A stretch of 64,000 nt of DNA from an uncultured delta proteobacterium (lineage in GTDB: Bacteria > Desulfobacterota > RBG-13-43-22): contig CAWJJC010000011.1 in the NCBI GenBank assembly GCA_963843145.1, forward strand, positions 17,793 through 81,792. Direction: 5' to 3'. Shown one piece after another: positions 1,585 through 14,584 of the stretch. The notes below the pieces were generated by a model. The model did not search any database. It saw nothing but the letters and a program-made list of their open reading frames with translations, and had not been told where the DNA came from. Every line of letters starts with the position of its first letter. Within the stretch, counting starts at the first letter, position 1. The position numbers were made by a program, and so were the translations under genes.

Positions 1585-2412
1585 ATGAGCGATGAAATTA
1601 TTGATGTTAAAGATCATGAACCATCTCGTAGTGGTAAAATAGCCAAAATTTCGCGTAGTGCTCTGCAGATTGCTGGCGGGGCAATTCCTTTTGCGGGCGG
1701 TATGTTGTCTGCGGCGGCGGGCGCTTGGTCGGAAGGAGAACAGGAAAAAGTAAATAGGTTCTTCAAACATTGGCTTCAGATGCTTCAAGATGAATTAAAG
1801 GAAAAAGAGCAGACAATAATCGAAATCATGGCGCGGCTTGATTTACAGGATGAAGAGATTTCCAAGAGAGTTGAGAGCAAAGAATATCAGACATTAATAA
1901 AGAAAACTTTCCGCGAATGGTCCGGGGCGGAGAGCGAAGAAAAGCGCAAGTACATTAGAAACATTTTGTCCAATGCCGCAGCCACCCAAGTTACCAGCGA
2001 TGATGTAGTCCGCCTGTTCATCGACTGGATAAATCAGTATTCAGAGATGCATTTCCAGGTTATAGGTGCCATTTATAATAGCGACGGTATTACAAGAGGA
2101 CGGATTTGGACAAAGATCGGCAAAGGGCCTGTTCGTGAGGATTCTGCTGATGCGGATCTTTATAAACTCCTATTCCGAGATCTAAGCACCGGGGGGATCA
2201 TTCGTCAGCACCGAGAAGTCGATCGGTTCGGCAATTTTATACCTAAGTCCGCAGAAAGGCGGTTAAAAGGCAGTGGGACAAAACCACTTGTTTCTGCTTT
2301 TGATAATGAGGAAGGGTATGAATTAACGGCTTTGGGACGAGATTTTGTTCATTATGCAATGACGGATTTACCTCTCAGAATCGAATTTACCACTGATCCA
2401 AATAGGCCATAA
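1585..2412 (+). CDS. hypothetical cassette protein, Abi-alpha/DUF4393-like
   Basis: N-terminal AIPFAGGMLS helix, ESEEKRKYIRNILSNAA, C-terminal wHTH-like YELTALGRDFV; stop falls inside the attC inverse core. Confidence 0.6.
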   Translation: MSDEIIDVKDHEPSRSGKIAKISRSALQIAGGAIPFAGGMLSAAAGAWSEGEQEKVNRFFKHWLQMLQDELKEKEQTIIEIMARLDLQDEEISKRVESKEYQTLIKKTFREWSGAESEEKRKYIRNILSNAAATQVTSDDVVRLFIDWINQYSEMHFQVIGAIYNSDGITRGRIWTKIGKGPVREDSADADLYKLLFRDLSTGGIIRQHREVDRFGNFIPKSAERRLKGSGTKPLVSAFDNEEGYELTALGRDFVHYAMTDLPLRIEFTTDPNRP

Positions 2413-2516
2413 CGTCGCCATCCACTCGGACCTGAACAAAGCCGGGCGCATTTGGTCAATGGCACCCGCAAGGTTAAAGGCAGCGAAGTTTAGGCCGGTG
2501 ATGACCGGCGGTGGCT
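2407..2516 (+). mobile_element. attC site (degenerate)
   Basis: CCATAAC inverse core; CATCCACTCGGACCTGAAC pairs with GTTTAGGCCGGTGATG; core degenerate (GGTGGCT). Confidence 0.65.
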
Positions 2517-2529
2517 CCACCTCCGGCGT

Positions 2530-2619
2530 CGCCAACCAGGCCATTGGATACTGTGTCACTGCCTCGCCTGGGCCTCCGGCCCAGCAACCTGCGTGTCACG
2601 GGTAAACGCCACGTTAACT
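2530..2619 (+). mobile_element. attC site (repeat type B, copy 2)
   Basis: CGCCAAC...CTGGGC-CTCCG-GCCCAG...GCGTGTCACGGGTAAACGCCAC-GTTAACT. Confidence 0.7.
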
Positions 2620-2637
2620 GGCTTAGGGTAAACGAAG

Positions 2638-3663
2638 GTGAAGGAACGCGACCTAAAAATACTCTGGGGACGATCAGGGAACCGTTGCGCCCTCTGCAAG
2701 ATCGAACTAACGCCGAGCGGAGACCGTGAGACTTTAGGAGAGATGGCGCACATTGTCGGTAGACGGGCGGACGGCCCACGCGGTATCGAAGACCTGCCAG
2801 CCGAGGAAAGGGATACGTACTCGAACCTAATTCTCCTTTGCCCAACACACCATCGGGAGATCGATAAGAACGAGGCCGACTGGTCATCCGTCAAGATAAG
2901 GCTAGTGAAGGTCGAACACGAGCAGTGGGTTTCGAGCATGCTCGCACGCTCCGAGATTGCAGTCGCAGAGATCGACAACTCGGACTTCTTGAATTCCCGC
3001 ATACGATTCTGGATTGACTTCTGCGATGGCGGGATAGGCATAAGCGTCTCACTCACTCCATTACGAATCGGATCTGACGTTGTAAATGTCCTAGACGAAT
3101 TGGGCCAACACACTCTGGAGTCCGCACGAGTCGCTGGGCACGGATACCAAGGTGCACTAAACTCCTACAAGACAAGGCCTTCCGAGCACGGTATCTGCAA
3201 TGAGCGTCGTAGTGAGCCCGGCGGGCTAGATGGTTACTCCTTCCACTTATTCAACTCTGGGCACTGTGAAGTCATCTATGCGCTCAATTCAGAATCTGCA
3301 CGACTTGCTGAACAGTGCGAAGGGCGCGTCGGCGACTACCACGGCGCAACCAAACTGATAAGGTACACAGATCTCGCGAAGCGCATCATTGCCAGTATTG
3401 CTTGGACTAGGCAAGTGTGGCAGCACTTTCTGCCCTTTCGCTATATGGATTTCCGGATCCATGTGCTCTCAGCTCTGAGGCTAACCATCTTCTCTTATGA
3501 GGATGATTGGCGAGTCGGTGTTTTCGGTTACCCTTTGACCAGTGATTCCCTTATATTCAAAGAGGTCTATGAGAAGAATGAATTCAACGCGCAGGTTGAG
3601 ACAGAGGTTCTCAGGTGGGTTGCAAGGTCATTCGGGCTCCAGGCTGTTGACCATTTACGATGA
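2638..3663 (+). CDS. HNH endonuclease fused to an uncharacterised C-terminal domain (cassette)
   Basis: LWGRSGNRCALC...GEMAHIVGRRADGPRG...NLILLCPTHHREID. Confidence 0.85.
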   Translation: MKERDLKILWGRSGNRCALCKIELTPSGDRETLGEMAHIVGRRADGPRGIEDLPAEERDTYSNLILLCPTHHREIDKNEADWSSVKIRLVKVEHEQWVSSMLARSEIAVAEIDNSDFLNSRIRFWIDFCDGGIGISVSLTPLRIGSDVVNVLDELGQHTLESARVAGHGYQGALNSYKTRPSEHGICNERRSEPGGLDGYSFHLFNSGHCEVIYALNSESARLAEQCEGRVGDYHGATKLIRYTDLAKRIIASIAWTRQVWQHFLPFRYMDFRIHVLSALRLTIFSYEDDWRVGVFGYPLTSDSLIFKEVYEKNEFNAQVETEVLRWVARSFGLQAVDHLR

Positions 3664-3704
3664 GGGAGGGCGGCTCGTCCGTCCATTCCCGTTCCGGTGA
3701 TGCC

Positions 3705-3809
3705 AACTAATAAATGGATCGAATTGGTAGGCAAAAGAGTCAATCCCCTTACAAGAGGAAGAGTAAGGGTAGCGCCAATTTCGCCTACAGCTCATCCCTG
3801 GCGTTGGCA
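3705..3809 (+). mobile_element. attC site
   Basis: AACTAAT...GGATCGAATTGGTAGGCAAAA pairs with TTTCGCCTACAGCTCATCC...GC-GTTGGCA. Confidence 0.7.
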
Positions 3810-3877
3810 ACTCCTCGGCGACACCATGCGTTGTTGCCCCAGTCGGTCCCTGTCTCGGTCGGCTTCGTCTTTGGCGA

Positions 3878-3967
3878 CGCAAACTAGGCCATAGAACCCG
3901 TTAGTACTGGGTTGCATGGTCCTTCGACCCAGCAACCAACGTGCCACGGGTCAATTCCGCATTATGT
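3878..3967 (+). mobile_element. attC site (repeat type B, copy 3)
   Basis: CGCAAACTAGGCCAT...CCAGCAACCAACGTGCCACGGGTCAATTCCGC-ATTATGT; core complementary to CACATAAC at the end of the next gene. Confidence 0.65.
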
Positions 3968-3984
3968 GACCAGGGAATATAAGA

Positions 3985-4725
3985 ATGGACGATGATAATC
4001 TGAAAAAGAAGATCAATGAGTTGGCCGATGAGTCCAGCGTCATAATAGCAAATCCAGGGGACATAGAAAAACTTAAGAAGCAAGGATTACCATTTCGCGT
4101 CGTACCCTCTCAGACTATTGCCGATCTTTTTCAAGAGCGTCTGAAAACCGCAGTGGATGTTGTTGCACAATTGCCCGCTCTACCGGATAGCCTACCCCCA
4201 GCTATTAAATCCCTTTATCAAGAGATACGGGAATGTATCTTTTTCGGCCTTAATGGAGCTGCTATCACTCTCTCTGGGAATCTTATTGAATTCACTCTTA
4301 AACATGCAACATATGTCAAAGAAGTCGGCGGCTACCAAGAATACGATCCGGAGAAGTGGGATCAATTTGAAAAGATTGAATTCGGCGATGCTATAGGGCG
4401 CGCGAAAAGATCGGGCTTGTTAAGGTCCAAAATAGCAAAACAGCTTCAATCATTTCGTGAGGATATTCGGAACCCTTACAGCCATTACAACATAAAGAAG
4501 ATCACTGAAGACGTAATTGCCGGGAGGGTCAAAAGGATCAATTTGGCAACGGGAGAGGTCGAGGAAATGGACATACCAGCAAAAGACAGCCCGATGATAC
4601 AAGCCCAAGTTAAGCCGTGGGTAGACGGACAAAGGGTACTTGCTGTTTTCCATTTCGCTGATGGGATAGTGAAGTACTTGATTGCAATGCTAGAAGAGTA
4701 TCTGAAAAGCACACATAACGAATAA
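3985..4725 (+). CDS. HEPN-domain (DUF4145-like) protein (cassette)
   Basis: LYQEIRECIFFGLNGAAITLSGNLIEFTLK helix and Rx4H motif RNPYSH. Confidence 0.7.
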   Translation: MDDDNLKKKINELADESSVIIANPGDIEKLKKQGLPFRVVPSQTIADLFQERLKTAVDVVAQLPALPDSLPPAIKSLYQEIRECIFFGLNGAAITLSGNLIEFTLKHATYVKEVGGYQEYDPEKWDQFEKIEFGDAIGRAKRSGLLRSKIAKQLQSFREDIRNPYSHYNIKKITEDVIAGRVKRINLATGEVEEMDIPAKDSPMIQAQVKPWVDGQRVLAVFHFADGIVKYLIAMLEEYLKSTHNE

Positions 4726-4740
4726 GTGCACCAGACTCCG
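4713..4740 (+). mobile_element. truncated attC (left half only)
   Basis: ACATAAC inverse core then GTGCACCAGACTCCG; no matching right arm. Confidence 0.45.
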
Positions 4741-5161
4741 AAATGGGGTCGGGCCGGCATTGAGTCATGAGAATGAAGGGTCGGACCCAATGCCGTTAAC
4801 TTAACAGAAAGAGCCTGTTTTTACTATCTTTAATGGTTTCGGGTTCCAGGGGTAACGGTTGTGGGACAGGGTATTTACGAGGACGTCCCCGGCGGCGCTT
4901 TTCCAAGCCCCGACTTTTCCTGCGATATTCCTGTCGATCCCGAGTGAACTTACGGCCCGGTTTTACAGACACGCGGTGCCGGGCACAGAACTTTATGAAG
5001 ACTTCCCAAAGAGGCCAGAGCAGCTTTTCCGAGGTGGCGAACAATAATCTTAGAAAAAAACGGGTTTCGGGAAGCTCCCGAGCAAAACTGATCTGGCCAA
5101 TGGAAACATATCAGATGAGGTGTGAACCAGGATATTAACCCGATCAACGGCGTCACATACA

Positions 5162-5506
5162 GTGGCAAATTCAGATAAGGAGATAAACGTGAGATTTATT
5201 TTACTATCCCGGCACACGGGCGGCAGTGAAATCCCAGAGACTGAAGTCGCCCAAAATCTTAAAGACATGAGCGAATGGGTTTCTTTGCTTAAGGCGTCGG
5301 TAGTTATGCCAATTAGAGGCGGGAAAACTGTCACAACTGAGAAGGTCGAAGAGTATGTCGGAGATCTTGGCGGACTGCTCATTTTTGAAGCCGACAGTCT
5401 TGATCAAGCGGTAGCGTTGGCCAGGAAGTCGCCAGGCCTGAAATATGGATTTACACACGAGGTCTTCCCGGAGATTTCCCTGGAGGAGGCGGCTGGGAGA
5501 AAATGA
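5162..5506 (+). CDS. YciI-related domain protein
   Basis: GGKTVT...LGGLLIFEADSLDQAVALARKSPGL pattern; start uncertain. Confidence 0.65.
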   Translation: MANSDKEINVRFILLSRHTGGSEIPETEVAQNLKDMSEWVSLLKASVVMPIRGGKTVTTEKVEEYVGDLGGLLIFEADSLDQAVALARKSPGLKYGFTHEVFPEISLEEAAGRK

Positions 5507-5658
5507 GAAGCGCAGTATATCCAAGGAGATGTTCGCCGGAAGAAGCGAATCGGGGTCTAACCAAACAAGCCCATTGAATTTAACTTAATCATGTTGAATC
5601 CTGGATGCGTTTGAAGACTTATTAAGGGTATCATAATTGTCTGTACATACCACCGACC

Positions 5659-5742
5659 GTCATCCCCGAGTGTCTTTGTCGGGGATCCAGAATCGTACCA
5701 GACCGAGGCTGGATTCCCGCCCAGAAGCGCTGCGGGAATGAC
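5659..5742. repeat. palindromic intergenic repeat (GTCATCCCCG...GGATCCAG...CTGGATTCCCGC...GCGGGAATGAC)
   Basis: Copies at 39279, 48175 and a variant at 34954. Confidence 0.85.
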
Positions 5743-5836
5743 GATAAGGGAACCTGGAGATAGCCGATTCTATTATGCGACCTTTAATAAAATGCCCTTA
5801 TTACCCTCGAAAAGAGGTTTCTAAGCAGACAAACCC

Positions 5837-6040
5837 ATGCCCAGGGCCAATCGGCATTTCATCTCCGGTCAGATCTGGCACATCACCCACCGCGGCCACA
5901 AGAGGAGATTATTACTTTCCGGGCTTTTCGCTGGACGGAAAGCCTGGCGGTGGGTGGAGAGGCCTTTTAAAAGAAATTCAGGAGGCTTTAAGGGTATGGG
6001 CCAGCGGCCGTTCAGTCGTCTCGGCCGAGGAAAATTATGA
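5837..6040 (+). pseudogene. REP-associated tyrosine transposase (RAYT/Y1) remnant, internally deleted
   Basis: N-terminus MPRANRHFISGQIWHITHRGH joined to a C-terminal-like EALRVWASGRSVVSAEENYE in another frame. Confidence 0.6.
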
Positions 6041-6598
6041 ATGGCGAATGACGATCGCACCAAGATAATTCCCAGAGGAACGCCGGAATCAGCGGCCATG
6101 TCGGCAAACGTCAAACGAGCGCTGGCGATCACCGCCCGCCTCAACCGTTTGACGTACAACGATGCGGACGAAGTCCGCGCCTTGTTCAGCGAGCTCATCG
6201 GCAGGAAGGTGGACGACAGCTTTCTATTGATTCCACCATTCTACACTACTGGCGGGCCCGAAATCCGTGTTGGGCGTAATGTTTTCGTAAATCAGAACTG
6301 CACTTTTTATGATCTTGGCGGCCTCGACATTGCCGATGATGTGATGATCGGCCCGAACGTGAGCATCATCACGTCCGGCCATCCCATTGAACCTTCTCAG
6401 CGGCGCGCCTTTGTAGTCGCCAAGCCCATTGTGATTGAAAGAAACGTCTGGATCGCAGTCGGCGCAACGATCATCGGCGGAGTGACGGTCGGCGAGAACT
6501 CTGTTGTGGCGGCAGGCTCCGTAGTCACCAAAGACGTTCCCCCGAATACTCTTGTCGGAGGAAATCCGGCGAGAATCATTCGCTTGATTGGAGACTGA
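6041..6598 (+). CDS. sugar O-acetyltransferase (maltose/galactoside acetyltransferase family)
   Basis: Hexapeptide repeats, PPFYT, GNPARII. Confidence 0.92.
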   Translation: MANDDRTKIIPRGTPESAAMSANVKRALAITARLNRLTYNDADEVRALFSELIGRKVDDSFLLIPPFYTTGGPEIRVGRNVFVNQNCTFYDLGGLDIADDVMIGPNVSIITSGHPIEPSQRRAFVVAKPIVIERNVWIAVGATIIGGVTVGENSVVAAGSVVTKDVPPNTLVGGNPARIIRLIGD

Positions 6599-6611
6599 GG
6601 AAAGGAACGCC

Positions 6612-6683
6612 ACCCAGCATTGCACTGCAACTGACCGCCAACCCGCTTCGCGGCTTGTCGGCGGCTGGGTTTAGGCCTTGGGC
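6612..6683 (+). mobile_element. degenerate attC site
   Basis: ACCCAGC...CTGCAACTGACCGCCAACCCGCTTCGCGGCTTGTCGGCGGCTGGG...CTTGGGC imperfect palindrome between two short genes. Confidence 0.65.
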
Positions 6684-6709
6684 CCTGGAAGTACAGAGAG
6701 GAGAGCACG

Positions 6710-7054
6710 ATGAGCAACGAACAGGTGGCACCTGAGACGAAAGGGGTTACGGTGAAGTTACTGGCCACGGTTGACCTTGGCCCTGAGATCGAGGGCCTGG
6801 CCGGGCGCCAACTTCGAATGCGGATGGTGACCATCGAGCCTGGAGGCGTCTTCGGCCCGGTTCACGACCATAAAGGCAGACCGGGCACCGTCTACATACT
6901 GCAAGGAACGATCACGGACCATCGAAATGGAATCGCGACCGACTATGGACCGGGAGTGGGCTGGCCCGAGGATAGGAACACCACTCACTGGCTTGAGAAC
7001 AGAGGAACGATTCCGGCAGTGGAGATCTCGGTCGATATAGTCAGGCAAGAGTAA
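6710..7054 (+). CDS. cupin domain protein
   Basis: VTIEPGG...HDHKGRPG...HWLENRG cupin motifs. Confidence 0.88.
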   Translation: MSNEQVAPETKGVTVKLLATVDLGPEIEGLAGRQLRMRMVTIEPGGVFGPVHDHKGRPGTVYILQGTITDHRNGIATDYGPGVGWPEDRNTTHWLENRGTIPAVEISVDIVRQE

Positions 7055-7096
7055 ACCTCAACGTTGCCTAAAAAACAGGGCGGAAAATAAATAGAG

Positions 7097-7663
7097 TTAA
7101 TATCCATTGGAATAAAATGTCTTCCCGGATTCCCCCATTTCCCGGATGCCTTCCCCGTTATCCGAAATTCTGAGGGCAACGTATTCGCCTTCTGCCAGGA
7201 CGTCATAATTACTGGTGGGTTGATCGATATAGCGATTTGAAGTGGAAATGGTGAGTTGTCCCACGCCCTTCATCGCCTCCATGGCATTGTATAACAAATT
7301 CATAATAGCCTTTGAAAGATGGATTTGCGAACCATGGACATCAAAAAGGTCCGGTTGCAGATCTGTTTCAATCCGCGTGTCGGGATAATCGGCGACAAGT
7401 TTCGGGAACTCGGGGGATTCCAAAATGCCTGACAAGACCTGGTTCAAATTGAGTATTTGAGTAGAAAAAACGTCTCTTCTGGCCAGAGTCAGCAAGTCCT
7501 GAACGACCGCCGCCGCCCTTTCACCGGATTTCTGTATGGTAATGGTATTTGATATTAACCCCATGGGGAAAAAATCAACAACGGCCTTCCCTGCCATTTT
7601 ACCCAGAAAAGCGAGAAACGAACTATGAAGGATCCAATATAGAATCCCCAGCCGGAATCCCAA
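7097..7663 (-). pseudogene. sensor histidine kinase fragment (HATPase_c part)
   Basis: KSGERAAAVVQDLLTLARR, NLLYNAMEAM, ISDNGEGI; no H-box, F/G2 boxes or sensor domain. Confidence 0.75.
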
Positions 7664-8130
7664 TAACCATCCGGCAATGAGAGGAAAAATACTGAAAATG
7701 TGGAAGAATGATGCTGTCTTCTACAAAAAATATAGTGAAAGTGGTTTTAAAGATCAAGAAGAATCCTGTAACGGATGTTGTGGATGGAAGCCCACGGACG
7801 GAAAAAAGAGATAAGGTGAGAAATCATTCCGTCCCTTTGGCCCTTGGATCTGGGTAGAATAGGTCCTTTTGAAGTCGATCCCCTGACCTGTCCCCCATGC
7901 CGGGAGCCAATGCAAATTATCGGTATTATCGAGGACCAGGAACCTGTCGAGAGCCTCCAGGTCGAACGAGAGTCCCTGATCCTCTAACGCCCCAAGGACC
8001 ACCGGCTGACCTCCGCAAGCAACCAATACGCCGCCTATATTTCATTTGACGAAAATCCGTCTTTCTGGTCCAATAAATCCAGTCGCACCCTATCGCGGGG
8101 GGAGTCCATTCTCAACGGGGGGAAACCATT

Positions 8131-8829
8131 TTGCACTACTTTCCGATCGCTTTGCCTTTTCTCTTTTTCTTTGCCTTCCTTTTCATCATTTTAATCACCA
8201 TGCTGGAGGTCGGCATTCTCCGGTATGCCTACGAGCGGATGGGGATTGGACAAAGACATATGTTCGCCCTGCTGTTTCTCTCCTTTATGGGGAGTTACCT
8301 GAACATCCCTCTCTTTCAACTGCCGCCCCACCAGGTGCGTTCCGGAGAGGTGATCACCTCTTTTGGCATGACCTATATCGTGCCATTTGTCAGAGACTGG
8401 CCGGGAACGGTCGTGGCGGTCAACGTGGGCGGGGCGGTCATTCCTGCCTTACTCTCCCTTTACCTATACCTGAAGAACCGGCTGTACTTCCGTGGATTGG
8501 CCGGGGTGGCCGTCGTCGCTTTTGTTGTTCATTTGATCGCCCATCCGGTCCCAGGCCTCGGGATTGTAGTTCCAACCCTCCTCCCCTCTCTGATCGCCAC
8601 GCCGGTGGCTCTGATCCTGTCGCCGCGGCATGCGCCTCCCCTGGCCTATATCGTCGGCAGCCTCGGAACACTGATCGGAGCGGATCTCCTCAACCTCGGC
8701 AAAATCCAGGGCCTGGGGGCCCCGGTGGCCTCCATCGGCGGGGCCGGGACCTTTGACGGCATCTTCCTCAGCGGGATCCTTTCCGTTTTGCTGGCTAGCC
8801 TGCTGATCCGAAAAAAAAGGATTCTCTAA
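8131..8829 (+). CDS. DUF1614 membrane protein
   Basis: GSYLNIP, AVNVGGAVIP, GTLIGADLLNL, SIGGAGTFDGIF. Confidence 0.9.
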   Translation: MHYFPIALPFLFFFAFLFIILITMLEVGILRYAYERMGIGQRHMFALLFLSFMGSYLNIPLFQLPPHQVRSGEVITSFGMTYIVPFVRDWPGTVVAVNVGGAVIPALLSLYLYLKNRLYFRGLAGVAVVAFVVHLIAHPVPGLGIVVPTLLPSLIATPVALILSPRHAPPLAYIVGSLGTLIGADLLNLGKIQGLGAPVASIGGAGTFDGIFLSGILSVLLASLLIRKKRIL

Positions 8830-8849
8830 CCGATTAAACCCTTTCATCC

Positions 8850-8947
8850 TTGTCCGGGGGACGATCGCAGACGCCTTCTTCGATCATCAGGGCCGCTTCG
8901 TTGATGCCCAGGGCCAGGAGGGTGTCGACAATCTCTTGGGGTTCCAT
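8850..8947 (-). pseudogene. fragment of 3-hydroxyacyl-CoA dehydrogenase/FadB C-terminal domain
   Basis: Manual translation MEPQEIVDTLLALGINEAALMIEEGVCDRP. Confidence 0.55.
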
Positions 8948-8998
8948 TTTCCGGGAAACGATCAGTGGGGAATAGGGGTCGGACCATCCGAACCGTTT

Positions 8999-9163
8999 CA
9001 GGAGGCCTTAGGGGTAAAGGCCGGCGGCCGTTCAGTCATCTCGGATGGTGAACAGCAGCAGCTCCGGGATCTTCAACAGCCTTACAACGTCAATTTTGCC
9101 CCCGAAAAGGGCCGTTTAAGGCAAAATATTGGCCTCGAATGGGACGTTTATCCCGAAACTTAA
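8999..9163 (+). pseudogene. RAYT transposase C-terminal remnant
   Basis: QEALGVKAGGRSVISDG...; DNA similar to 5979-6030. Confidence 0.5.
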
Positions 9164-9219
9164 TTAGCGGCGTTTCTTCTTACTATATAACCAACAACCA
9201 TGGGAATTTCCCTTCCTTC

Positions 9220-9510
9220 TCAGGAGGACAATCCGAGACCGCGGCTGATGATCAGTTTCATAATTTCGCTGGTCCCGGCAAAGATGGACAGGCAACGCAC
9301 ATCCCGATAGATTTTGCAGACGCGGTATTCTTCCATATAGCCGTAGCCTCCATGGATCTGGACCGCCTGGTAGGCAATGCGGTTCACCATTTCACCGAGC
9401 CAGTATTTGGCCATGGATATGATCGCGGACCAGGCTGTCTAGAAAAGTGCGCCCCAGTTGGACCTCGGTGGCCATATCCGCCAGCCGAAAGGCGTTATAT
9501 TGGAAATTAC
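9220..9510 (-). pseudogene. acyl-CoA dehydrogenase C-terminal fragment, frameshifted
   Basis: GNFQYNAFRLADMATEVQLGRTFL then MAKYWLGEM...QIHGGYGYMEEY...IFAGTSEIMK; closely resembles the C-terminus of 33775-34926. Confidence 0.85.
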
Positions 9511-9741
9511 CGAATTCCGAGACCCCCTCCCCTACCGGCCCCACGTCAGCGGGATTCCCCCCCACTAATCGTTCGATCCTTACCAGTATACGCGAACGTG
9601 TACGAAAATCGGCCAGGCCGTCCAGCCAGTTAACGAAGGCTTCAGTCTTGCGAATCTCAGTTCTAGTTTATGATTGTAGCCCCCCGGCTACATTTTGGCA
9701 AGCTATACGCGATGCCGTTCGATTCACCGCGGCAGGCTCCG

Positions 9742-11739
9742 TCAAGGCGTAACGATCGAGAAGTTCCAATCAGGATCATCGAGCAGCGAGAACAGGGAGA
9801 CCAGCTTCAGTCGATCTCCTTTGATATGCAGATCGTCGGAGAAAACCAGATCCTTTATCGAGGCCTGCTTGGTTACAAGTTTGATCCAGAAGGAGCGGGT
9901 CAGGGTTACGGTGACATCGGCCTGCGGGTCCGCCGCCGTTTCTTTGTAGTGGAGGACGGAGTTTTCGATATGCACGACCATCGTCGCGCCTACGTCCTTA
10001 AAAACGAAATTAGCGGTCAGCTTCTTGCCGTCCGCCTTGGGTCCATCCAACCGGGTTGCCATCGCGGCAAAGAACTGGTCGAGGGGCAAGCTGCGCAAGA
10101 CGCCGGCGGCGGCATCCAGCGTCGTCGTTCCGCTGACTCCGTGGCGCAGCTCCTGCGCTCCGGTGAGATAGACGTCGCGCCAGGGTCCGGACTCTGCGAG
10201 ATAGCCGAGCTGATCATAGGTCCGAGCCAACAAGTCTTTGGCGGCGTCGTTTCCGGGAGCGGAGAACACGACGTGGTTGAGCAACGTAGCCGCCCAACGG
10301 TAGTCGCCCTGGTCGTAGGCTTCACCCGCCCTGGTAATGACGGCGCCGGCTCCGCCCATGGCCTCGACATAGCGCCGACCCTCATCTTCCGGCGGTAGCG
10401 GGTCGAGGTTCGCCGGGTTGCCGTCGAACCAGCCGAAGTAGAACTGGTAAACGGCGCGCGCGTTGTGTTTGGCCGTCCCGTAGTAGCCACGGTTGGGGAA
10501 GGATCGCCGGAGGCTTTCGGGGAGTACCATGTTTTCGGCGATCTCGCCCGGCGTCATACCTCTTGACGCCAGGCGCAACGTTTGGTCGTGCAGGTAGCGG
10601 TAGGTATCCCGATGTTTTTTCAGGTAGTCGATCACTCGTTCCGCGCCCCACACCGGCCAGTGATGACTGTTGAAAACGACCTCGGCCTGGCCGCCAAACA
10701 GGTCTAGGGCCTCGTCGATGTACCCGCTCCAAAGCAGAGCGTCGCGCACCTTGGCCCCTCGAAGGGTGTAGAGGTTGTGCATGTTCTGCGACACGATTTC
10801 GGCTCCGCAGAAACTCTTAAACTGCGGCAGGAAGAATGTGAACTCCGTCGGGGCTTCGGAATGCGGCACGTACTGAAAGACGAACTCGACGCCGTCGATT
10901 TCCATCTTCTGTCCGGTATGATCAACGATTTCGGTGGGTGCGAAAATGGATACGTCACTGACCGCCGGTCCCTTCCCCAGGCCCGTATCGACGTGGCCGC
11001 GGTCGGTCCGGCTCAGACCGGTGCCGTACATGTAGCGTGCTCGGCGCCCCATGACAACGCCGCCGAGGACGTTCTCACTGACCGCCTCAGCCATGAAATC
11101 CTTGGGTGCGATGAGTCGGACCTTGCCGGATCGAATGTCTTCCTCGCTGGTGACGCCCTTGATGCCGCCCCAATGATCGATATGACTGTGGGTGAAGATG
11201 ACCGCTGCCAGCGACCGTTCACCAAGGGAACGATTGACGAGGGCCAGCGCACGCTCGGCAGTCTCGGAGGCGGTGAGCGGGTCGACGAGGATACGGCCGC
11301 TTTGCCCCTCGATGATGCTCAGGTTCGCCAGGTCGTAGCCGCGAACCTGATAGATGCGGTCTGTCACTTTGAAGAGGCCGTTGATATTATTGAGCTTGGC
11401 CTGGCGCCACAGGCTCGGGTTCACACTGGGCGGCGCATCGCCGGTGACGAAGTCGTAGGACGGACGATCCCAGATCACTCGACCGGCACCGGTCTTCGTC
11501 ACCAGGGGATCGTCCGTCGTCATAAACCCTCGATGCGCGTCGTCGAACTCCGACCTGTCGTCTAGGGGGAGTTCCGCACCCATCGCCGCATTGGCGTTCG
11601 CCGTCAGGTCACTTGCCCGGGCATGCCCGTCTCCATCTGCATCGGGGCCGAAATTCCTGGCTTCCGGGCTTTTTTTGAGGTACGACGCCAGTGCCGTCAA
11701 ACCGCTCACGAGCCTGGTCCCGAATGAAGGTGGCCGCAT
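9742..11739 (-). CDS. alkyl/aryl sulfatase (SdsA1/BDS1 family, MBL fold, C-terminal SCP2-like domain)
   Basis: VNPSLWRQAKLN, THSHIDHWGG, HNLYTLRGAKVRD, HHWP, GWFDGNPANL. Confidence 0.93.
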   Translation of the reverse strand: MRPPSFGTRLVSGLTALASYLKKSPEARNFGPDADGDGHARASDLTANANAAMGAELPLDDRSEFDDAHRGFMTTDDPLVTKTGAGRVIWDRPSYDFVTGDAPPSVNPSLWRQAKLNNINGLFKVTDRIYQVRGYDLANLSIIEGQSGRILVDPLTASETAERALALVNRSLGERSLAAVIFTHSHIDHWGGIKGVTSEEDIRSGKVRLIAPKDFMAEAVSENVLGGVVMGRRARYMYGTGLSRTDRGHVDTGLGKGPAVSDVSIFAPTEIVDHTGQKMEIDGVEFVFQYVPHSEAPTEFTFFLPQFKSFCGAEIVSQNMHNLYTLRGAKVRDALLWSGYIDEALDLFGGQAEVVFNSHHWPVWGAERVIDYLKKHRDTYRYLHDQTLRLASRGMTPGEIAENMVLPESLRRSFPNRGYYGTAKHNARAVYQFYFGWFDGNPANLDPLPPEDEGRRYVEAMGGAGAVITRAGEAYDQGDYRWAATLLNHVVFSAPGNDAAKDLLARTYDQLGYLAESGPWRDVYLTGAQELRHGVSGTTTLDAAAGVLRSLPLDQFFAAMATRLDGPKADGKKLTANFVFKDVGATMVVHIENSVLHYKETAADPQADVTVTLTRSFWIKLVTKQASIKDLVFSDDLHIKGDRLKLVSLFSLLDDPDWNFSIVTP

Positions 11740-11852
11740 AAACTTCCTCTTTGTCTTTCAAGTCTATCGAAAGGGGTTATCCCGGTAGATCTAAGTAATT
11801 GCTTCGAGAAACTGGCGGCGTCCCGTAGGGGTAAAAAGGACTTTCAAGGTTT

Positions 11853-11966
11853 TTAACTCTCATGGGTTATGAAGACAGGCTCTCCGGACAACGAAACGCC
11901 TCTAACCACATCACTGGCGTTTTGCCTGAGATCTGAAATTGGTATGATTTTTGGAGTACTTGGCAT
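11853..11966 (-). pseudogene. truncated Phd/YefM antitoxin
   Basis: MPSTPKIIPISDLRQNASDVVRGVSLSGEPVFITHES* with GGAGG RBS; no toxin follows. Confidence 0.7.
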
Positions 11967-12155
11967 TGGCTGTGCCTCCCATGACGTTCTTAATAGTACC
12001 ACCAAATAATTATATCTTCAAGAGTTCGGCCTCGTTCTCCATAGGGATTTCATCTGGCAAAGGAAGCCAAAAGCCCTCTTGACTTTTGAAACCTCTCCAA
12101 TTTCCAGGCGGCAGGTTTATTCATTTTCCCCCGGGACAGTTTCCTCGCTCGGCAA

Positions 12156-13367
12156 TCAGGCAACCACCCCCCGGTCTTTAAAACTCCCGATTTCTTCCGG
12201 ACCGTATCCCAACCCGGCCAGAATCTCTTCGGTATGCTGCCCCAATCCCGGGGCCGGAAGTCGCCAGGAGGCCGGTGTTTCGCTGAAATCCCAGGGGAAG
12301 CCCGGCATTTTAACGTCGCCCCATTCGGGGTGGGGGACCTCGATGAAATAGTTGTTGGCCCAGGCCTGGGGGTCTTGGGTCACTTCCAGGGGCGTCTGGA
12401 TCGGCGTAAAGATGCAGCCTTCCCGCGCCAGAATATCCATCCATTCCTGCCGGTCCCGGGAGGCGAAGCGATCGTCCAGGAGGGCCACCAGTTCCGCGGC
12501 GTTTTCCCCCCGGGCGGCGATACTGGAGAAGCGGGCGTCTTCCCGAATTTCTTCCAATCCCAGGGCCTGGCAGAGCTTCGGCCAATAGCGGTCGGGGTCC
12601 AGGTGGGCGATGGCCAGCCATTTATCATCCCGGCAGCGGTAGTGGTTGTAGAGCGGGTTGCCGGCCCGGGACCGGACCTGGCGGGGGAATTCCTTGCCCA
12701 TAATGGCCGGGGCGGCCAGGACAAAGGCCAGGGCGCCGATCAGGCCGCTCATCAGGGAGGTGTCCACCACCTGTCCCTTGCCGGTCTTTTCCCGGGCGAA
12801 GAGCGCTGCCGTTACCCCCCAGGCACACATCAGACCGCCGATCTCATCGCCGATACCCGGCAGGATCTGGCCCGGCGGTTCTCCCGGTTCCCCGGCCGCC
12901 ATCATCAAGCCGCAGCGGGCGATCCCGGTGTAGTCGAAAGAAAAGTCTTCCGCCCCTTCGCCCTTCCGCCCCCAGCCCGAGGCGTGGGCGTAGATCAACC
13001 GGGGATTACGGGCCAACAGGGCATCCGGCCCGATGCCCATCTTGTCCGGCGCCTGGATACTCATGTTGGTGAGGAAGACGTCCGCGGTGTCGATCAGTCG
13101 AAGAAACAAGTCCCGGCCTTCCGGTTTTTTCAGGTCGATGACGATGCTTTTCTTGTTCCGGTTGCCGTGCTCAAAATAGTAATTGTTCCCCTCCAGCCCG
13201 GCCATGGCCCCGATGATCTTCATAAACCCCCGGCCCGGGTCCCCGCTCGGGGATTCCACCTTGATCACCTCGGCCCCCAGGTCTCCCAACCGCATGCCGG
13301 CCACCGGCCCCTGTTGGAACAGGGTGATTTCCACCACTCGGATTCCGTCCAACGGTCCTTTTTTCAT
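12156..13367 (-). CDS. class III CoA-transferase (CaiB/BaiF family, FldA/HadA-like)
   Basis: LGDLGAEVIKVE, NRNKKSI, SFDYTG, PGIGD, QAWANNY, APGLGQHTEEIL. Confidence 0.93.
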   Translation of the reverse strand: MKKGPLDGIRVVEITLFQQGPVAGMRLGDLGAEVIKVESPSGDPGRGFMKIIGAMAGLEGNNYYFEHGNRNKKSIVIDLKKPEGRDLFLRLIDTADVFLTNMSIQAPDKMGIGPDALLARNPRLIYAHASGWGRKGEGAEDFSFDYTGIARCGLMMAAGEPGEPPGQILPGIGDEIGGLMCAWGVTAALFAREKTGKGQVVDTSLMSGLIGALAFVLAAPAIMGKEFPRQVRSRAGNPLYNHYRCRDDKWLAIAHLDPDRYWPKLCQALGLEEIREDARFSSIAARGENAAELVALLDDRFASRDRQEWMDILAREGCIFTPIQTPLEVTQDPQAWANNYFIEVPHPEWGDVKMPGFPWDFSETPASWRLPAPGLGQHTEEILAGLGYGPEEIGSFKDRGVVA

Positions 13368-13531
13368 TTTAACTCCTCCCTATTTTTAATATTTTCCCCT
13401 TCGTTCCTGACCCTCACAGACCAAAACAGGCATAAAGGTTTGTTGTGCGCCGAAGGCGCCAAGGGTTGGGTGGGCGGCAGGTCGCCGCCCACCTGTCCTG
13501 TTTGGTCGGTGGCAAAATAAGTCATTTCCCC

Positions 13532-13575
13532 AAACAAAAAAGGGCCATGGTATTTCCCATGGCCCTTTTTTGTTT
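13532..13575 (-). terminator. intrinsic terminator of the attenuator
   Basis: Minus strand AAACAAAAAAGGGCCATGG-GAAATA-CCATGGCCCTTTTTTGTTT. Confidence 0.88.
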
Positions 13576-13578
13576 ATT

Positions 13579-13608
13579 CCATGGGCGGCCCCTTTCAGGT
13601 CCGCCCGG
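13579..13608 (-). promoter_or_regulatory. attenuator pause/antiterminator segment
   Basis: GGGCGGACC-TGAAA-GGGCCGCCC hairpin; overlapping CCCATGG can instead pair with CCATGGG in the terminator 5' arm. Confidence 0.75.
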
Positions 13609-13620
13609 CTTCGCTATCGG

Positions 13621-13704
13621 TTATGTCCGGCAGAAAAGGGCAGACCCGTTCCTAAAGCTAAAAAAGCTAAAGTTAAAAAATCGGATTTGCCCCTGTCCGC
13701 TCAC
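13621..13704 (-). CDS. Phe-rich leader peptide (27 aa, MSGQGQIRFFNFSFFSFRNGSALFCRT)
   Basis: GTG start with AAGGAAGGA RBS; 6 Phe (all TTT) within 9 codons, 7 Phe in total; precedes the attenuator hairpins. Confidence 0.85.
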   Translation of the reverse strand: MSGQGQIRFFNFSFFSFRNGSALFCRT

Positions 13705-13740
13705 TTGGCTATGTCCTTCCTTTAAGAAAAAACTGGAGAC

Positions 13741-13770
13741 AGTATAATTGAAATAAAATCGGAATGTCAA
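13741..13770 (-). promoter_or_regulatory. sigma70 promoter of the leader and CoA-transferase
   Basis: TTGACA-N18-TATACT on the minus strand. Confidence 0.75.
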
Positions 13771-13873
13771 ATAGAGAATTTAAAAATTGGTTTGATTTAA
13801 TTTTAACATAATGAAATGATTGGCTTGGATAAAATTCAGAAAAGCAACACGCTTGAAGGATGAACCAATAAAA

Positions 13874-14584
13874 ATGGATACGGTCATCATAGCTTGTCGT
13901 ACTATTGCCGATGAACTGCGGGTAGCCCTGCGAGAAACCGGGTGTACCTACCCTGTACTATGGATAGAATCGGGACTGCACCTCAGACCCGAATCCTTAA
14001 GAACCCGCCTCCAGGAGGAACTGGATCATATCGGGAATATCAGCCAGGCCCTTCTGGCCTTCGGCTATTGCGGCAATGCCCTGCTCGGGCTCAAGGCCGG
14101 AGACTTCCGGGTCATCTTCCCCCGGGTGGACGATTGCATCACCTTGATGCTGGGTTCCGGTTCCCGCCGCAACGCCATTGGCCGGGAGTGTGGGACCTAT
14201 TTTCTCACCAAAGGGTGGTTGGATTTTGAAAGGAATATCTGGGTGGAATACCAGGAAACGGTCAAGCGCCATGGAAAAGAAAAGGCCGACCGGATATTTA
14301 AGGTCATGCTCCGCCACTATCAACGCTTAGGCGTTATTGACACCGGCGCCTATGACCTGGGCAGCTTTCTTGAACGAGTGCGGAATATCGGCGAGGCTTT
14401 GGCGCTAAAACCCCAGGTGATCCCGGGAACACTGGATTACCTGAAGAAACTCCTTACCGGTCCGTGGGATGAAGATTTCATTATTATCAATCCCGGCGAG
14501 ACCGTAACGGTGGAACATATTTATGGAGGAGCCGCGTCATCCACCCGGGGAATCTCCACCCAGCCGCTTCAGTCCTGCATGTAG
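13874..14584 (+). CDS. DUF1638 domain protein
   Basis: IIACRTI, GLHLRPE, FGYCGNAL, PRVDDCITLMLGS, YFLTKGW. Confidence 0.88.
   Translation: MDTVIIACRTIADELRVALRETGCTYPVLWIESGLHLRPESLRTRLQEELDHIGNISQALLAFGYCGNALLGLKAGDFRVIFPRVDDCITLMLGSGSRRNAIGRECGTYFLTKGWLDFERNIWVEYQETVKRHGKEKADRIFKVMLRHYQRLGVIDTGAYDLGSFLERVRNIGEALALKPQVIPGTLDYLKKLLTGPWDEDFIIINPGETVTVEHIYGGAASSTRGISTQPLQSCM

Follow-up and report, generated by a model that had tools for sequence, protein, structure and literature searches.

The minus strand of positions 13770 to 12156 in a 64,000-nucleotide stretch of an uncultured delta proteobacterium (assembly GCA_963843145.1, contig CAWJJC010000011.1; the whole stretch is called the window) carries a promoter, a short phenylalanine-rich open reading frame (ORF), a chain of hairpins closing with an intrinsic terminator, and a single gene for a family III CoA-transferase. 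The arrangement suggests a ribosome-mediated transcription attenuator of the leader-peptide type that senses charged tRNA-Phe and in all probability gates the monocistronic CoA-transferase gene. On the comparative evidence presented below we regard it as very likely that the attenuator is real and specific for phenylalanine (Phe). An earlier reading of the DNA (the sequence-only reading) had described the promoter, the ribosome-binding site (RBS), a 27-aa upstream ORF (uORF) with six Phe in nine codons, a hairpin, a CCCATGG/CCATGGG complementarity and a U-tailed terminator, and all of them lie on the minus strand where it had placed them. The following features constitute the leader and its gene:

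13741..13770, minus strand: sigma-70-type promoter TTGACA-N18-TATACT, 11 of 12 consensus positions matched
13714..13722, minus strand: Shine-Dalgarno-like (SD-like) sequence AAGGAAGGA, 9 nt ahead of the GTG start
13621..13704, minus strand: leader ORF of 27 codons and a stop, GTG start, peptide MSGQGQIRFFNFSFFSFRNGSALFCRT, open and in frame in relatives
13654..13680, minus strand: Phe codon run TTT TTT AAC TTT AGC TTT TTT AGC TTT, six Phe in nine codons
13682..13700, minus strand: segment 1, GCGGACAGGGGCAAAUCCG, partner of segment 2 in the minimum free energy (MFE) fold
13630..13648, minus strand: segment 2, CGGGUCUGCCCUUUUCUGC, the last uORF codons, ending 9 nt before the stop
13638..13646, minus strand: core of segment 2, GGUCUGCCC, inside the uORF, with an alternative 9/9 pairing to segment 3
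13598..13606, minus strand: segment 3, GGGCGGACC, 5' arm of hairpin 3:4, pairing with GGGCCGCCC at 13583..13591
13579..13592, minus strand: segment 4, GGGGCCGCCCAUGG, 3' arm of hairpin 3:4, whose CCCAUGG alternatively pairs with segment 5
13536..13565, minus strand: intrinsic terminator GGGCCATGG-GAAATA-CCATGGCCC-T6 with a 9-bp G+C-rich stem; as RNA, segment 5 GGGCCAUGG, loop GAAAUA, segment 6 CCAUGGCCC, then U6
12156..13367, minus strand: family III CoA-transferase gene, 403 aa, PF02515, with the RBS GGGAGGAG 6 nt upstream

A promoter scan of positions 13200-14000 detected TTGACA/TATACT as the sole promoter-like site (0.9 on average in shuffles), and a TTGACA box stands at the equivalent position in the related leaders L002, L003, L004, L006 and L007 (loci carry L, genomes G and contigs C numbers). 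The window uORF holds seven Phe codons in frame compared to three in each of the other two frames; an in-frame TTG upstream of the GTG would lengthen it to 49 aa. The complementary stretches CCCATGG and CCATGGG are located at 13585-13579 and 13562-13556 of the minus strand, and an A-tract at 13571-13566 allows an extension of the terminator stem. A simple terminator scanner run on 13200-14000 did not list the window terminator, which we attribute to the continuation of the stem into A/U tracts. The leader RNA had an MFE of -149.7 kcal/mol, shuffled sequences -113.3 ± 5.0 kcal/mol (z = -7.2), and none of 100 shuffles was as stable. An Rfam cmscan of 13200-14000 with E values up to 10 returned 14 weak matches, no leader family among them; the weak matches in the leader region were driven by the terminator.

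The leader recurs in front of orthologous genes. When 41 related genomes were searched at the DNA level, five genomes other than the window's own proved to carry the part from promoter to terminator (query positions 1-269), in each case ahead of the orthologous gene. Protein-guided ortholog searches covered species genomes (41 loci), metagenome contigs (36 loci) and 401 phylum genomes, at least ten of which had an ortholog at an E value of 1e-130 or better, a lower bound with four candidates scored per genome. The nearest orthologous loci were in Desulfomonilaceae, Thermodesulfobacteriota and 'delta proteobacterium' metagenome-assembled genomes (MAGs). A Phe-rich uORF and a terminator were present directly ahead of 15 distinct orthologous loci, where the sequence-only reading had proposed to look for such uORFs. 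Two structural kinds can be distinguished: nine type A leaders with six segments (the window, L010, L032, L025, L024, L007, L009, L026 and L028) and six type B leaders with four segments (L011 = L065, L012 in a MAG titled Desulfomonile tiedjei, L013, L034, L067 and the first paralog of L138 = L020). Two further leaders head an operon of the CoA-transferase gene with the gene of a protein X (L031, L126), which together with the 15 orthologous loci makes 17 linked leaders. Examples of the peptides are MILTGHPSFLGFFFFSFRNGSALFCRT, MKDRGLFRFQGFCFFSFRNGFALFSCLS, MIGRVQIRFSFFCFFSQKTGSALLLRVG and MKFFGWTFFFGFFFCFSQRSARRRDIK, further ones MSFTSFRFFFFFSFRRSLPVS, MVRINERVFFFFSFRRYTRVN and MVVISNRDFFFGFFFRRKSRVR. 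Phe codons are most numerous in the uORF frame of every one of the 17 linked leaders (4-9 compared to 1-5 in other frames, with a tie in L011), and the Phe run is kept throughout while flanking residues vary and TTT and TTC are exchanged. In L025 a 1-nt deletion alters the peptide tail and the RNA segment is kept, thus this part is conserved as RNA and not as peptide. The ortholog behind the intact type A leader of L025 / L004 (G003) appears split into ORFs of 144 aa and 278 aa; a whole-genome search matched residues 133-402 only, either by a frameshift or by an assembly error.

In a maximum-likelihood tree, the orthologs from Chloroflexi, Acidobacteriota and Thermodesulfobacteriota formed one tight group with 100/100 support. 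An inner clade of 24 rows (91/83 support) contained 16 rows with a leader or in an X operon, and the type B genes made up one clade, starred in the tree, plus one leader-less row. The tree omits paralogs below 36 % identity save one outgroup, and L010, L025 and L067 were dropped owing to broken or short tblastn matches. Genome G377 (L138 = L020) has tandem CoA-transferase paralogs. A sigma-54 activator gene and a type B Phe leader precede the first of them; ahead of the second is a Tyr-rich uORF (..YTEYYYY..) whose frame extends across a terminator hairpin. This Tyr-rich uORF, a single instance in two identical records for which no convincing antiterminator was found, is no more than a lead.

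The following course of events is proposed. Transcription would start from the TTGACA/TATACT promoter. If translation failed, helices 1:2, 3:4 and 5:6 would form and lead to termination. With ample Phe, the ribosome would reach the UAA stop 9 nt past segment 2 and cover segment 2, so that 3:4 and 5:6 could form and the 5:6 hairpin with its U6 tail would end the transcript near position 13536. At scarce Phe-tRNA, the ribosome would stall in the FFNFSFFSF run and mask segment 1; the free segment 2 would capture segment 3, the freed segment 4 would capture segment 5 together with part of segment 6, and the delayed terminator would permit read-through into the gene. A stall in the Phe run would thus cause the enzyme to be made on Phe hunger. 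In type B leaders the start-codon region and the terminator's 3' arm would compete directly for pairing with GAGUGUGA at the uORF stop. The sequence-only reading had called hairpin 3:4 a pause hairpin; the hairpin is present, but it is better read as segments 3 and 4 of a six-segment switch. The GGUCUGCCC-GGGCGGACC pairing, which that reading did not contain, couples the uORF to this hairpin.

The leaders pheL and pheM of Enterobacteria switch on their genes when Phe-tRNA is scarce. With pheL-pheA and pheM-pheST the window leader shares a uORF with a Phe run, an intrinsic terminator and mutually exclusive pairings set by the position of the ribosome (background on pheL in the abstract of PMC3082878). 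It differs from them in several respects: no sequence or covariance-model relation was detected (no Rfam leader family at E values up to 10), the gene product is neither a tRNA synthetase nor a biosynthetic enzyme of the shikimate/prephenate route, the host belongs to the phylum Thermodesulfobacteriota, and type A has six segments instead of four. Six segments, A to F, are known from the his leader of Salmonella and E. coli, where the stall at the codons is passed down a chain of helices. Type A resembles it with hairpins 1:2, 3:4 and 5:6, the latter being the terminator, and with the alternative helices 2:3 and 4:5. In contrast to the his leader, the codons are for Phe and not for His, and the 4:5 helix has only 7 bp; in most of the nine leaders the terminator is the stronger of the two, thus function is less certain.

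The pairings were compared among the leaders. In the nine-sequence type A alignment, 83.5 % of the cells of the terminator state were paired compared to at most 49.5 % when slid, and the covariation score was 0.226 versus 0.144, with none of 500 shuffles as high and eight pairs changed on both sides. Helix 1 (1:2) was paired in 75 % of the cells with five pairs changed on both sides, and helix 3, the terminator, in 100 % of the cells in all nine leaders with two such pairs. One pair of 3:4 covaries, being G-C in five sequences and A-U in four; its alternative partner in segment 2 is always U and fits both. For the type A antiterminator, 100 % (2:3) and 95 % (4:5) of the cells were paired compared to at most 53.6 % when slid. 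The 2:3 pairing is 9/9 in all nine leaders, with four pairs varying through wobble. In type B leaders, helix 1:2 joins the start-codon region with a stretch just after the stop (GGUCGUCAU/GUGACGACU, GAUCGCCAU/GUGGCGAUC, UGACACACGC/GCGUGUGUCG), and helix 2:3 joins GAGUGUGA (or GCGUGUG) at the uORF stop with the loop and 3' arm of the terminator, UCACACUC (or CACACGC); the terminator itself reads GCGGAGU-UCAC-ACUCCGC. Complementarity was tested in 13 type B leaders, seven linked to the CoA-transferase and six before X. Helix 1:2 scored 19.1 within a sequence and 14.2 between sequences, with no permutation out of 5000 as high; helix 2:3 scored 18.3 and 16.8, with 97 of 5000 permutations as high, and is weak in two of the 13 (L011, L119). 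Mutually exclusive pairings are thus conserved, with covariation in the type A terminator-state helices and the type B helix 1:2. In type B the alternative helix is in direct competition for the arm of the terminator, and this design convinces more than type A.

Several observations weigh against the switch as proposed. The type A antiterminator helices change one-sidedly, through wobble, without double compensation, and the shuffle control cannot tell their pairing from plain conservation. In constrained folds of the window leader with segment 1 masked, the terminator state had -56.6 and the antiterminator state -50.8 kcal/mol; the unconstrained optimum (-62.4 kcal/mol) forms 2:3 and retains the terminator. 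Only two of the nine type A leaders favored the antiterminator state, two more being within 1 kcal/mol. With a terminator that is usually the more stable structure, the type A switch could work only kinetically and co-transcriptionally, segment 4 catching segment 5 before segment 6 is made. The leader sequences are related, therefore the permutation counts overstate the independence of the evidence. A loose search detected an SD-like motif in 12 of the 17 linked leaders and none in the other five, and the GTG start in the window has a spacer of 9 nt. At the metagenome orthologs L062 and L075 (86 % and 83 % identical), the end of a PIN-domain toxin gene occupies the site expected for promoter and uORF, both of which are missing; hairpin 3:4 and the terminator are still there. 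This looks like a natural deletion, the gene being either locked off or under read-through from the toxin gene. No leader was detected in the 13 rows of the Acidobacteriota clade, in three basal rows (two Chloroflexota, one metagenome contig) and in six rows inside the Thermodesulfobacteriota clade. Sixteen leader-less ortholog loci had no Rfam match at gathering score, thus neither a T-box nor a riboswitch takes the place of the leader there. An F-rich small ORF 390 nt upstream of L066 was not counted as a leader, a U-tailed terminator being absent.

The window locus is no chance occurrence in its own genome. Both strands of the 32 contigs (5.35 Mb) were scanned for small ORFs with a single-amino-acid run and a terminator-like hairpin no more than 130 nt from their end. 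For Phe, with at least five Phe in eight codons and a terminator, the window locus was the sole match. Outside the window, contig C2 (~133558-142401, locus L060) carries two divergent leaders of other aromatic composition: MQSYFTSKNNWWWRNLREGFVHR with the run WWW, followed by two terminators, ahead of trpD, and ..QQDFYYFYYWPG.. with the run FYYFYYW (..MISQKSQQDFYYFYYWPGTRLLMV) and a terminator ahead of an eight-gene aromatic operon, aroK-aroC-DAHPS-DHQS-pheA-tyrA-aroD-aroE. The operon encodes, in this order, shikimate kinase, chorismate synthase, DAHP synthase, dehydroquinate synthase, chorismate mutase-prephenate dehydratase, prephenate dehydrogenase, dehydroquinase and shikimate dehydrogenase. 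The organism hence carries attenuators of classic design on its aromatic pathway genes. The sequence-only reading had proposed to look for Phe-rich uORFs before pheA and the ior genes in this genome. The pheA operon has the mixed aromatic leader just described. None of the three iorA-like genes shows a leader: the two upstream regions read had no aromatic uORF, and the third gene begins inside an operon.

Further features surround the leader and the gene:

13441..13520, minus strand: repeat element of 80 nt, lying between terminator and gene RBS and containing two G+C-rich hairpins, GGUGGGCGGCGACCUGCCGCCCACC and GGCGCCUUCGGCGC
13820/13874..14584, plus strand: DUF1638 gene, divergent from the leader, also divergent in L010 and L032
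11853..12005, minus strand: Phd/YefM-like antitoxin fragment just downstream of the CoA-transferase gene

The repeat (query positions 281-360), a further addition to the sequence-only reading, had 16 matches in the relative G005 and two more, weak ones, in its own genome. The 95 % identical leader of G002 lacks it, as do L003, L004 and L007. Absent from so close a relative and matched many times elsewhere, it has to be seen as an insertion outside the switch. The terminator-to-gene distance is 168 nt, repeat included. With DUF1638 divergent upstream, and the antitoxin fragment and an alkyl-sulfatase-like gene further downstream, the CoA-transferase gene looks monocistronic, in agreement with the single CaiB/BaiF gene of the sequence-only reading. 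In L010 and L032, toxin-antitoxin genes are likewise found downstream of the CoA-transferase.

The 403-aa protein matched PF02515 (CoA_transf_3, CaiB/BaiF) with an E value of 2e-115 over profile positions 1-366 of 366. Asp174 in the motif GIGDEIGG is invariant, with at most one exception, among 59 aligned relatives down to 28 % identity; it is the putative active-site aspartate of family III, as known from work on Frc and CaiB. In a PDB search the nearest solved structure was SUGCT (9br6, E value 5e-51), followed by Rv3272, YfdE, racemases, Frc and BbsEF. No match to an NCBIfam equivalog attained the cut-off: the best score was 197 bits against a cut-off of 442, and all seven models, among them formyl-CoA transferase, succinate-glutarate, CoA:oxalate, succinyl-CoA:mesaconate and L-carnitine CoA-transferases and mesaconyl-CoA isomerase, remained far below their cut-offs. 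The close relatives, at least 120 protein clusters with more than 70 % identity, bear generic names throughout. By sequence the enzyme appears as a member of a tight, uncharacterised clade of family III.

For orthologs without a leader the gene context is telling. In L014, a Chloroflexi MAG with a 68 % identical ortholog, the gene order is D-2-hydroxyacid dehydrogenase-iorA-iorB-CoA-transferase-HGD-D-HGD-D-MarR, with a convergent class I/II aminotransferase gene; iorA matched TIGR03336 with 780 bits, above the cut-off. In Acidobacteriota, the genes opposite the ortholog encode a LarA-like 2-hydroxyacid racemase, two BcrAD-type activators and an HGD-D protein. FldA transfers CoA between arylacrylate and aryllactate (excerpted text of PMC5897657). 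Like FldA, the phenyllactate CoA-transferase of Clostridium sporogenes, and HadA, the window enzyme belongs to family III, and its orthologs adjoin two HGD-D genes, a D-2-hydroxyacid dehydrogenase gene and iorAB, resembling the Fld arrangement as far as the excerpt of PMC5897657 describes it. Unlike in the Fld system, the window gene stands alone and adjoins no dehydratase gene, and it would be wired to Phe hunger and not to Phe excess. The FldA-type label of the sequence-only reading thus has support from gene context such as the L014 cluster, but not from any NCBIfam equivalog.

These clusters, with genes for 2-hydroxyacyl-CoA dehydratase, activator, racemase, iorAB and aminotransferase in Chloroflexi and Acidobacteriota, raise the question of a catabolic enzyme in a Fld-like Phe fermentation, whose leader would follow an inverted logic, or limit Phe breakdown, with high expression in Phe plenty. 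Such a cluster layout is that of Phe fermentation in the excerpted FldA/FldBC description (PMC5897657). The leader itself argues in the opposite direction. In type A the uORF stop follows segment 2 at a distance of 9 nt, and in type B it falls within the antiterminator strand, hence a ribosome finishing the peptide would block the antiterminator, as in classic attenuation. Moreover, the catabolic-looking clusters hold leader-less orthologs, whereas leader-bearing genes stand alone or with X: dehydratase-type neighbours occur at L014, L035 and L022, and none in the window or at other leader-bearing loci. We consider the catabolic alternative very improbable.

In favor of an anabolic role, the codons of the leader would label the gene as one that serves Phe. 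It is about an even call whether the CoA-transferase takes part in the salvage of aromatic acids or their CoA esters towards Phe. Candidate substrates would be phenyllactate, cinnamate or 3-phenylpropionate, as in the Fld system, or phenylacetate, with a product leading via phenylpyruvate to Phe. Two routes fit. Phenylacetate could be converted to phenylacetyl-CoA and, by reductive carboxylation with an Ior-type enzyme, to phenylpyruvate; or the Fld pathway could run backwards, from cinnamoyl- or phenyllactyl-CoA via phenyllactate to phenylpyruvate. The first has a counterpart in Methanococcus maripaludis, where aryl acids are turned into CoA esters and reductively carboxylated by indolepyruvate oxidoreductase on the way to Phe, Tyr and Trp (excerpted text of PMC4162585). 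As there, a second, non-shikimate supply of aromatic amino acids is proposed, and the window genome has three iorA-like genes. In difference to the window locus, the archaeal route is described without a CoA-transferase or an attenuator in the excerpt of PMC4162585, and the link is drawn by inference, as no iorA of the window genome shows a leader. The route from phenylacetate through Ior, favored in the sequence-only reading, is thus one of at least two that fit. The functional assignment has to be weighed against the absence of a close characterised enzyme in PDB and NCBIfam, the catabolic-looking clusters of the orthologs, and the window genome itself, in which no partner gene adjoins the CoA-transferase gene, none of the three iorA-like genes has a leader and the contexts of the four HGD-D loci give no pointer to the Fld pathway.

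Phe-rich leaders are not confined to the CoA-transferase. In L029, L031, L064 and G283 the ortholog is located directly behind the gene of protein X (~540 aa), and in L031 and G283 X is preceded by the Phe-rich leaders MTHARDFFFGFYCFFSRGTCMA and MSKIEYFRFTIFFNFNRRPVMIFQNQ. The window genome encodes an X of 542 aa on contig C28 (441528-443360, L061/L098) behind the Phe/Tyr leader MRIFFSCFYYYFYSGVCPD. X was found in 34 of the 401 phylum genomes and in seven of the ten CoA-transferase-bearing ones. With at least five F/Y/W in nine codons as the test, 18 of 30 X loci had a mixed Phe/Tyr leader, e.g., MNVTRAYRYFYYYFFTGRTRTL or MIAISVQSFYYYFYFRRNPASS, of both type A and type B; here the codons would label the gene as serving Phe and Tyr. 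At L104, L105 and L106 (X loci of family f1) a tRNA-like sequence is present just upstream, only the terminator hairpin is left before X and no uORF was recognisable; L101 seems to have lost its uORF as well. Residues 63-190 of X form a GNAT domain (Z ~11), for which Pfam gave a weak match only and the PDB sequence search GNAT proteins only, with E values of 7e-4 or weaker. The C-terminal 346 aa had no Pfam match; their structural model (pLDDT 85) resembled kinase/APH-like rows with Z up to 7.5 and Foldseek E values of 1.2e-3 or weaker. The domain may be weakly kinase-like, a lead only, because such scores are within the range that the tool calls common.

A third structural kind of leader was found in G021, G198 and G310 (L144, L145, L146), where a second leader, with Phe only (..DFIFFSFFSCTGPP, ..TTFALFIFFGFFSCIDPP, ..EFFSTGFSFFFFSWTGPP), and a gene for a fused NDP-forming acyl-CoA synthetase of ~700 aa come after X. 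This enzyme is not homologous to the CoA-transferase and interconverts like molecules, an acid and its acyl-CoA. In L144 and L145 a gene for a Sir2-family deacetylase is divergent from X. The uORF core TTYTTYAGCTTTAGGA failed as a specific probe for further leaders, yielding 13 matches in the 401 genomes compared to 14 for the reversed control; one match, in G168, was a genuine further leader. In that genome (L160, G168:C15 ~2258-13306) pheA is divergent from iorA-iorB, followed by the Phe leader MMTLFFKRFFFFSFRRVHPCL with two terminators and, downstream, an MBL-fold gene, two ORFs of no known assignment and three genes with FAD_binding_4/CCG domains. The domains suggest a GlcDEF-like FAD 2-hydroxyacid dehydrogenase, a name given here. 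The chemistry recurring at Phe-labelled genes is the interconversion of acids and acyl-CoA and the oxidation of 2-hydroxyacids beside arylpyruvate enzymes. The anabolic Phe salvage of the sequence-only reading, a reasonable inference, is strengthened by Phe leaders on the non-homologous synthetase and on the operon beside pheA-iorAB in other genomes.

The same distribution bears on a different explanation, in which promoter, uORF and terminator constitute a separate small gene, for a micropeptide or a terminated small RNA, and the CoA-transferase gene is transcribed on its own. The strong terminator could indeed end most transcripts, the 168 nt up to the gene include an inserted repeat, and the core FFSFRNGSAL is well conserved in close relatives. 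However, the promoter scan gave no second promoter-like site between terminator and gene, and the unit is always oriented alike and directly ahead of genes of three unrelated families, CoA-transferase, X and acyl-CoA synthetase. The peptide varies outside the aromatic run, down to the frameshifted tail of L025 with its retained RNA, and conserved alternative pairings overlap the terminator. A separate small gene is therefore very improbable. That the leader senses general ribosome stalling by antibiotics or translation stress, as erm/cat-type leaders do, with the gene or X acting in stress or drug modification, is very improbable: X resembles the AAC/APH layout in features and fold (rows of an atlas with GNAT and APH families at 0.80-0.82, GNAT domain Z ~11, kinase-like domain Z 7.5 and Foldseek E 1e-3) and type B peptides have Arg-rich stretches after the Phe run, but the residue identity of the run is conserved over 17 leaders, Phe for CoA-transferase and synthetase and mixed Phe/Tyr for X, while the remainder of each peptide varies, trpD and the aro operon of the window genome have the runs WWW and FYYFYYW, respectively, and the type B Arg codons coincide with a conserved AGGAGG/AGGAAC stretch of the RNA.

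The Phe leader-peptide attenuator of the sequence-only reading thus has strong comparative support, with in-frame Phe uORFs, terminators and alternative pairings recurring before orthologs. A full-text literature search, which left subscription-only papers outside, revealed no precedent for a Phe leader-peptide attenuator on a CoA-transferase gene, in line with the earlier statement that none was described, and no report on leader-peptide attenuators of aromatic amino acid genes in Deltaproteobacteria. Comparative work on proteobacterial attenuators by Vitreschak and colleagues reportedly may touch related ground. A survey of 2010 stated that leader peptides were then known only from Proteobacteria and Actinobacteria, plus its own cases in Firmicutes (excerpted text of PMC2965389). 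To judge from the alignments, the window has a conserved Phe leader attenuator that belongs to new sequence families and stands before a gene of a family for which control of this kind is not known.

The window leader would be an entry point to a wider aromatic-starvation regulon. We put forward, tentatively and with more doubt than confidence, an undescribed Phe/Tyr-starvation regulon of Thermodesulfobacteriota with at least three structural kinds of leaders, which would switch on a non-shikimate supply of aromatic amino acids. Its members would be the FldA-like CoA-transferase, the NDP-forming acyl-CoA synthetase of other lineages, the operon of MBL-fold protein and FAD 2-hydroxyacid dehydrogenase by pheA-iorAB, and X. 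Through their joint action either the aryllactate (Fld) pathway would operate in reverse or arylacetyl-CoA would be carboxylated, and the resulting phenylpyruvate and 4-hydroxyphenylpyruvate would derive from aryl acids of the environment or from CoA esters that arise when the cell itself breaks down aromatic compounds.

Leader-peptide attenuators are built-in labels, as their codons tell which amino acid the downstream gene serves. A 'Phe' label is now on an uncharacterised clade of family III CoA-transferases and a 'Phe+Tyr' label on the X family, for which no function is known. The leaders extend classic attenuation to a phylum and to gene families for which no description was found, and they offer two or three compact RNA switches with natural variants that are usable for mechanistic work. 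An open annotation problem is thereby turned into testable hypotheses on how anaerobes of soil, sediment and aquifer obtain their aromatic amino acids.

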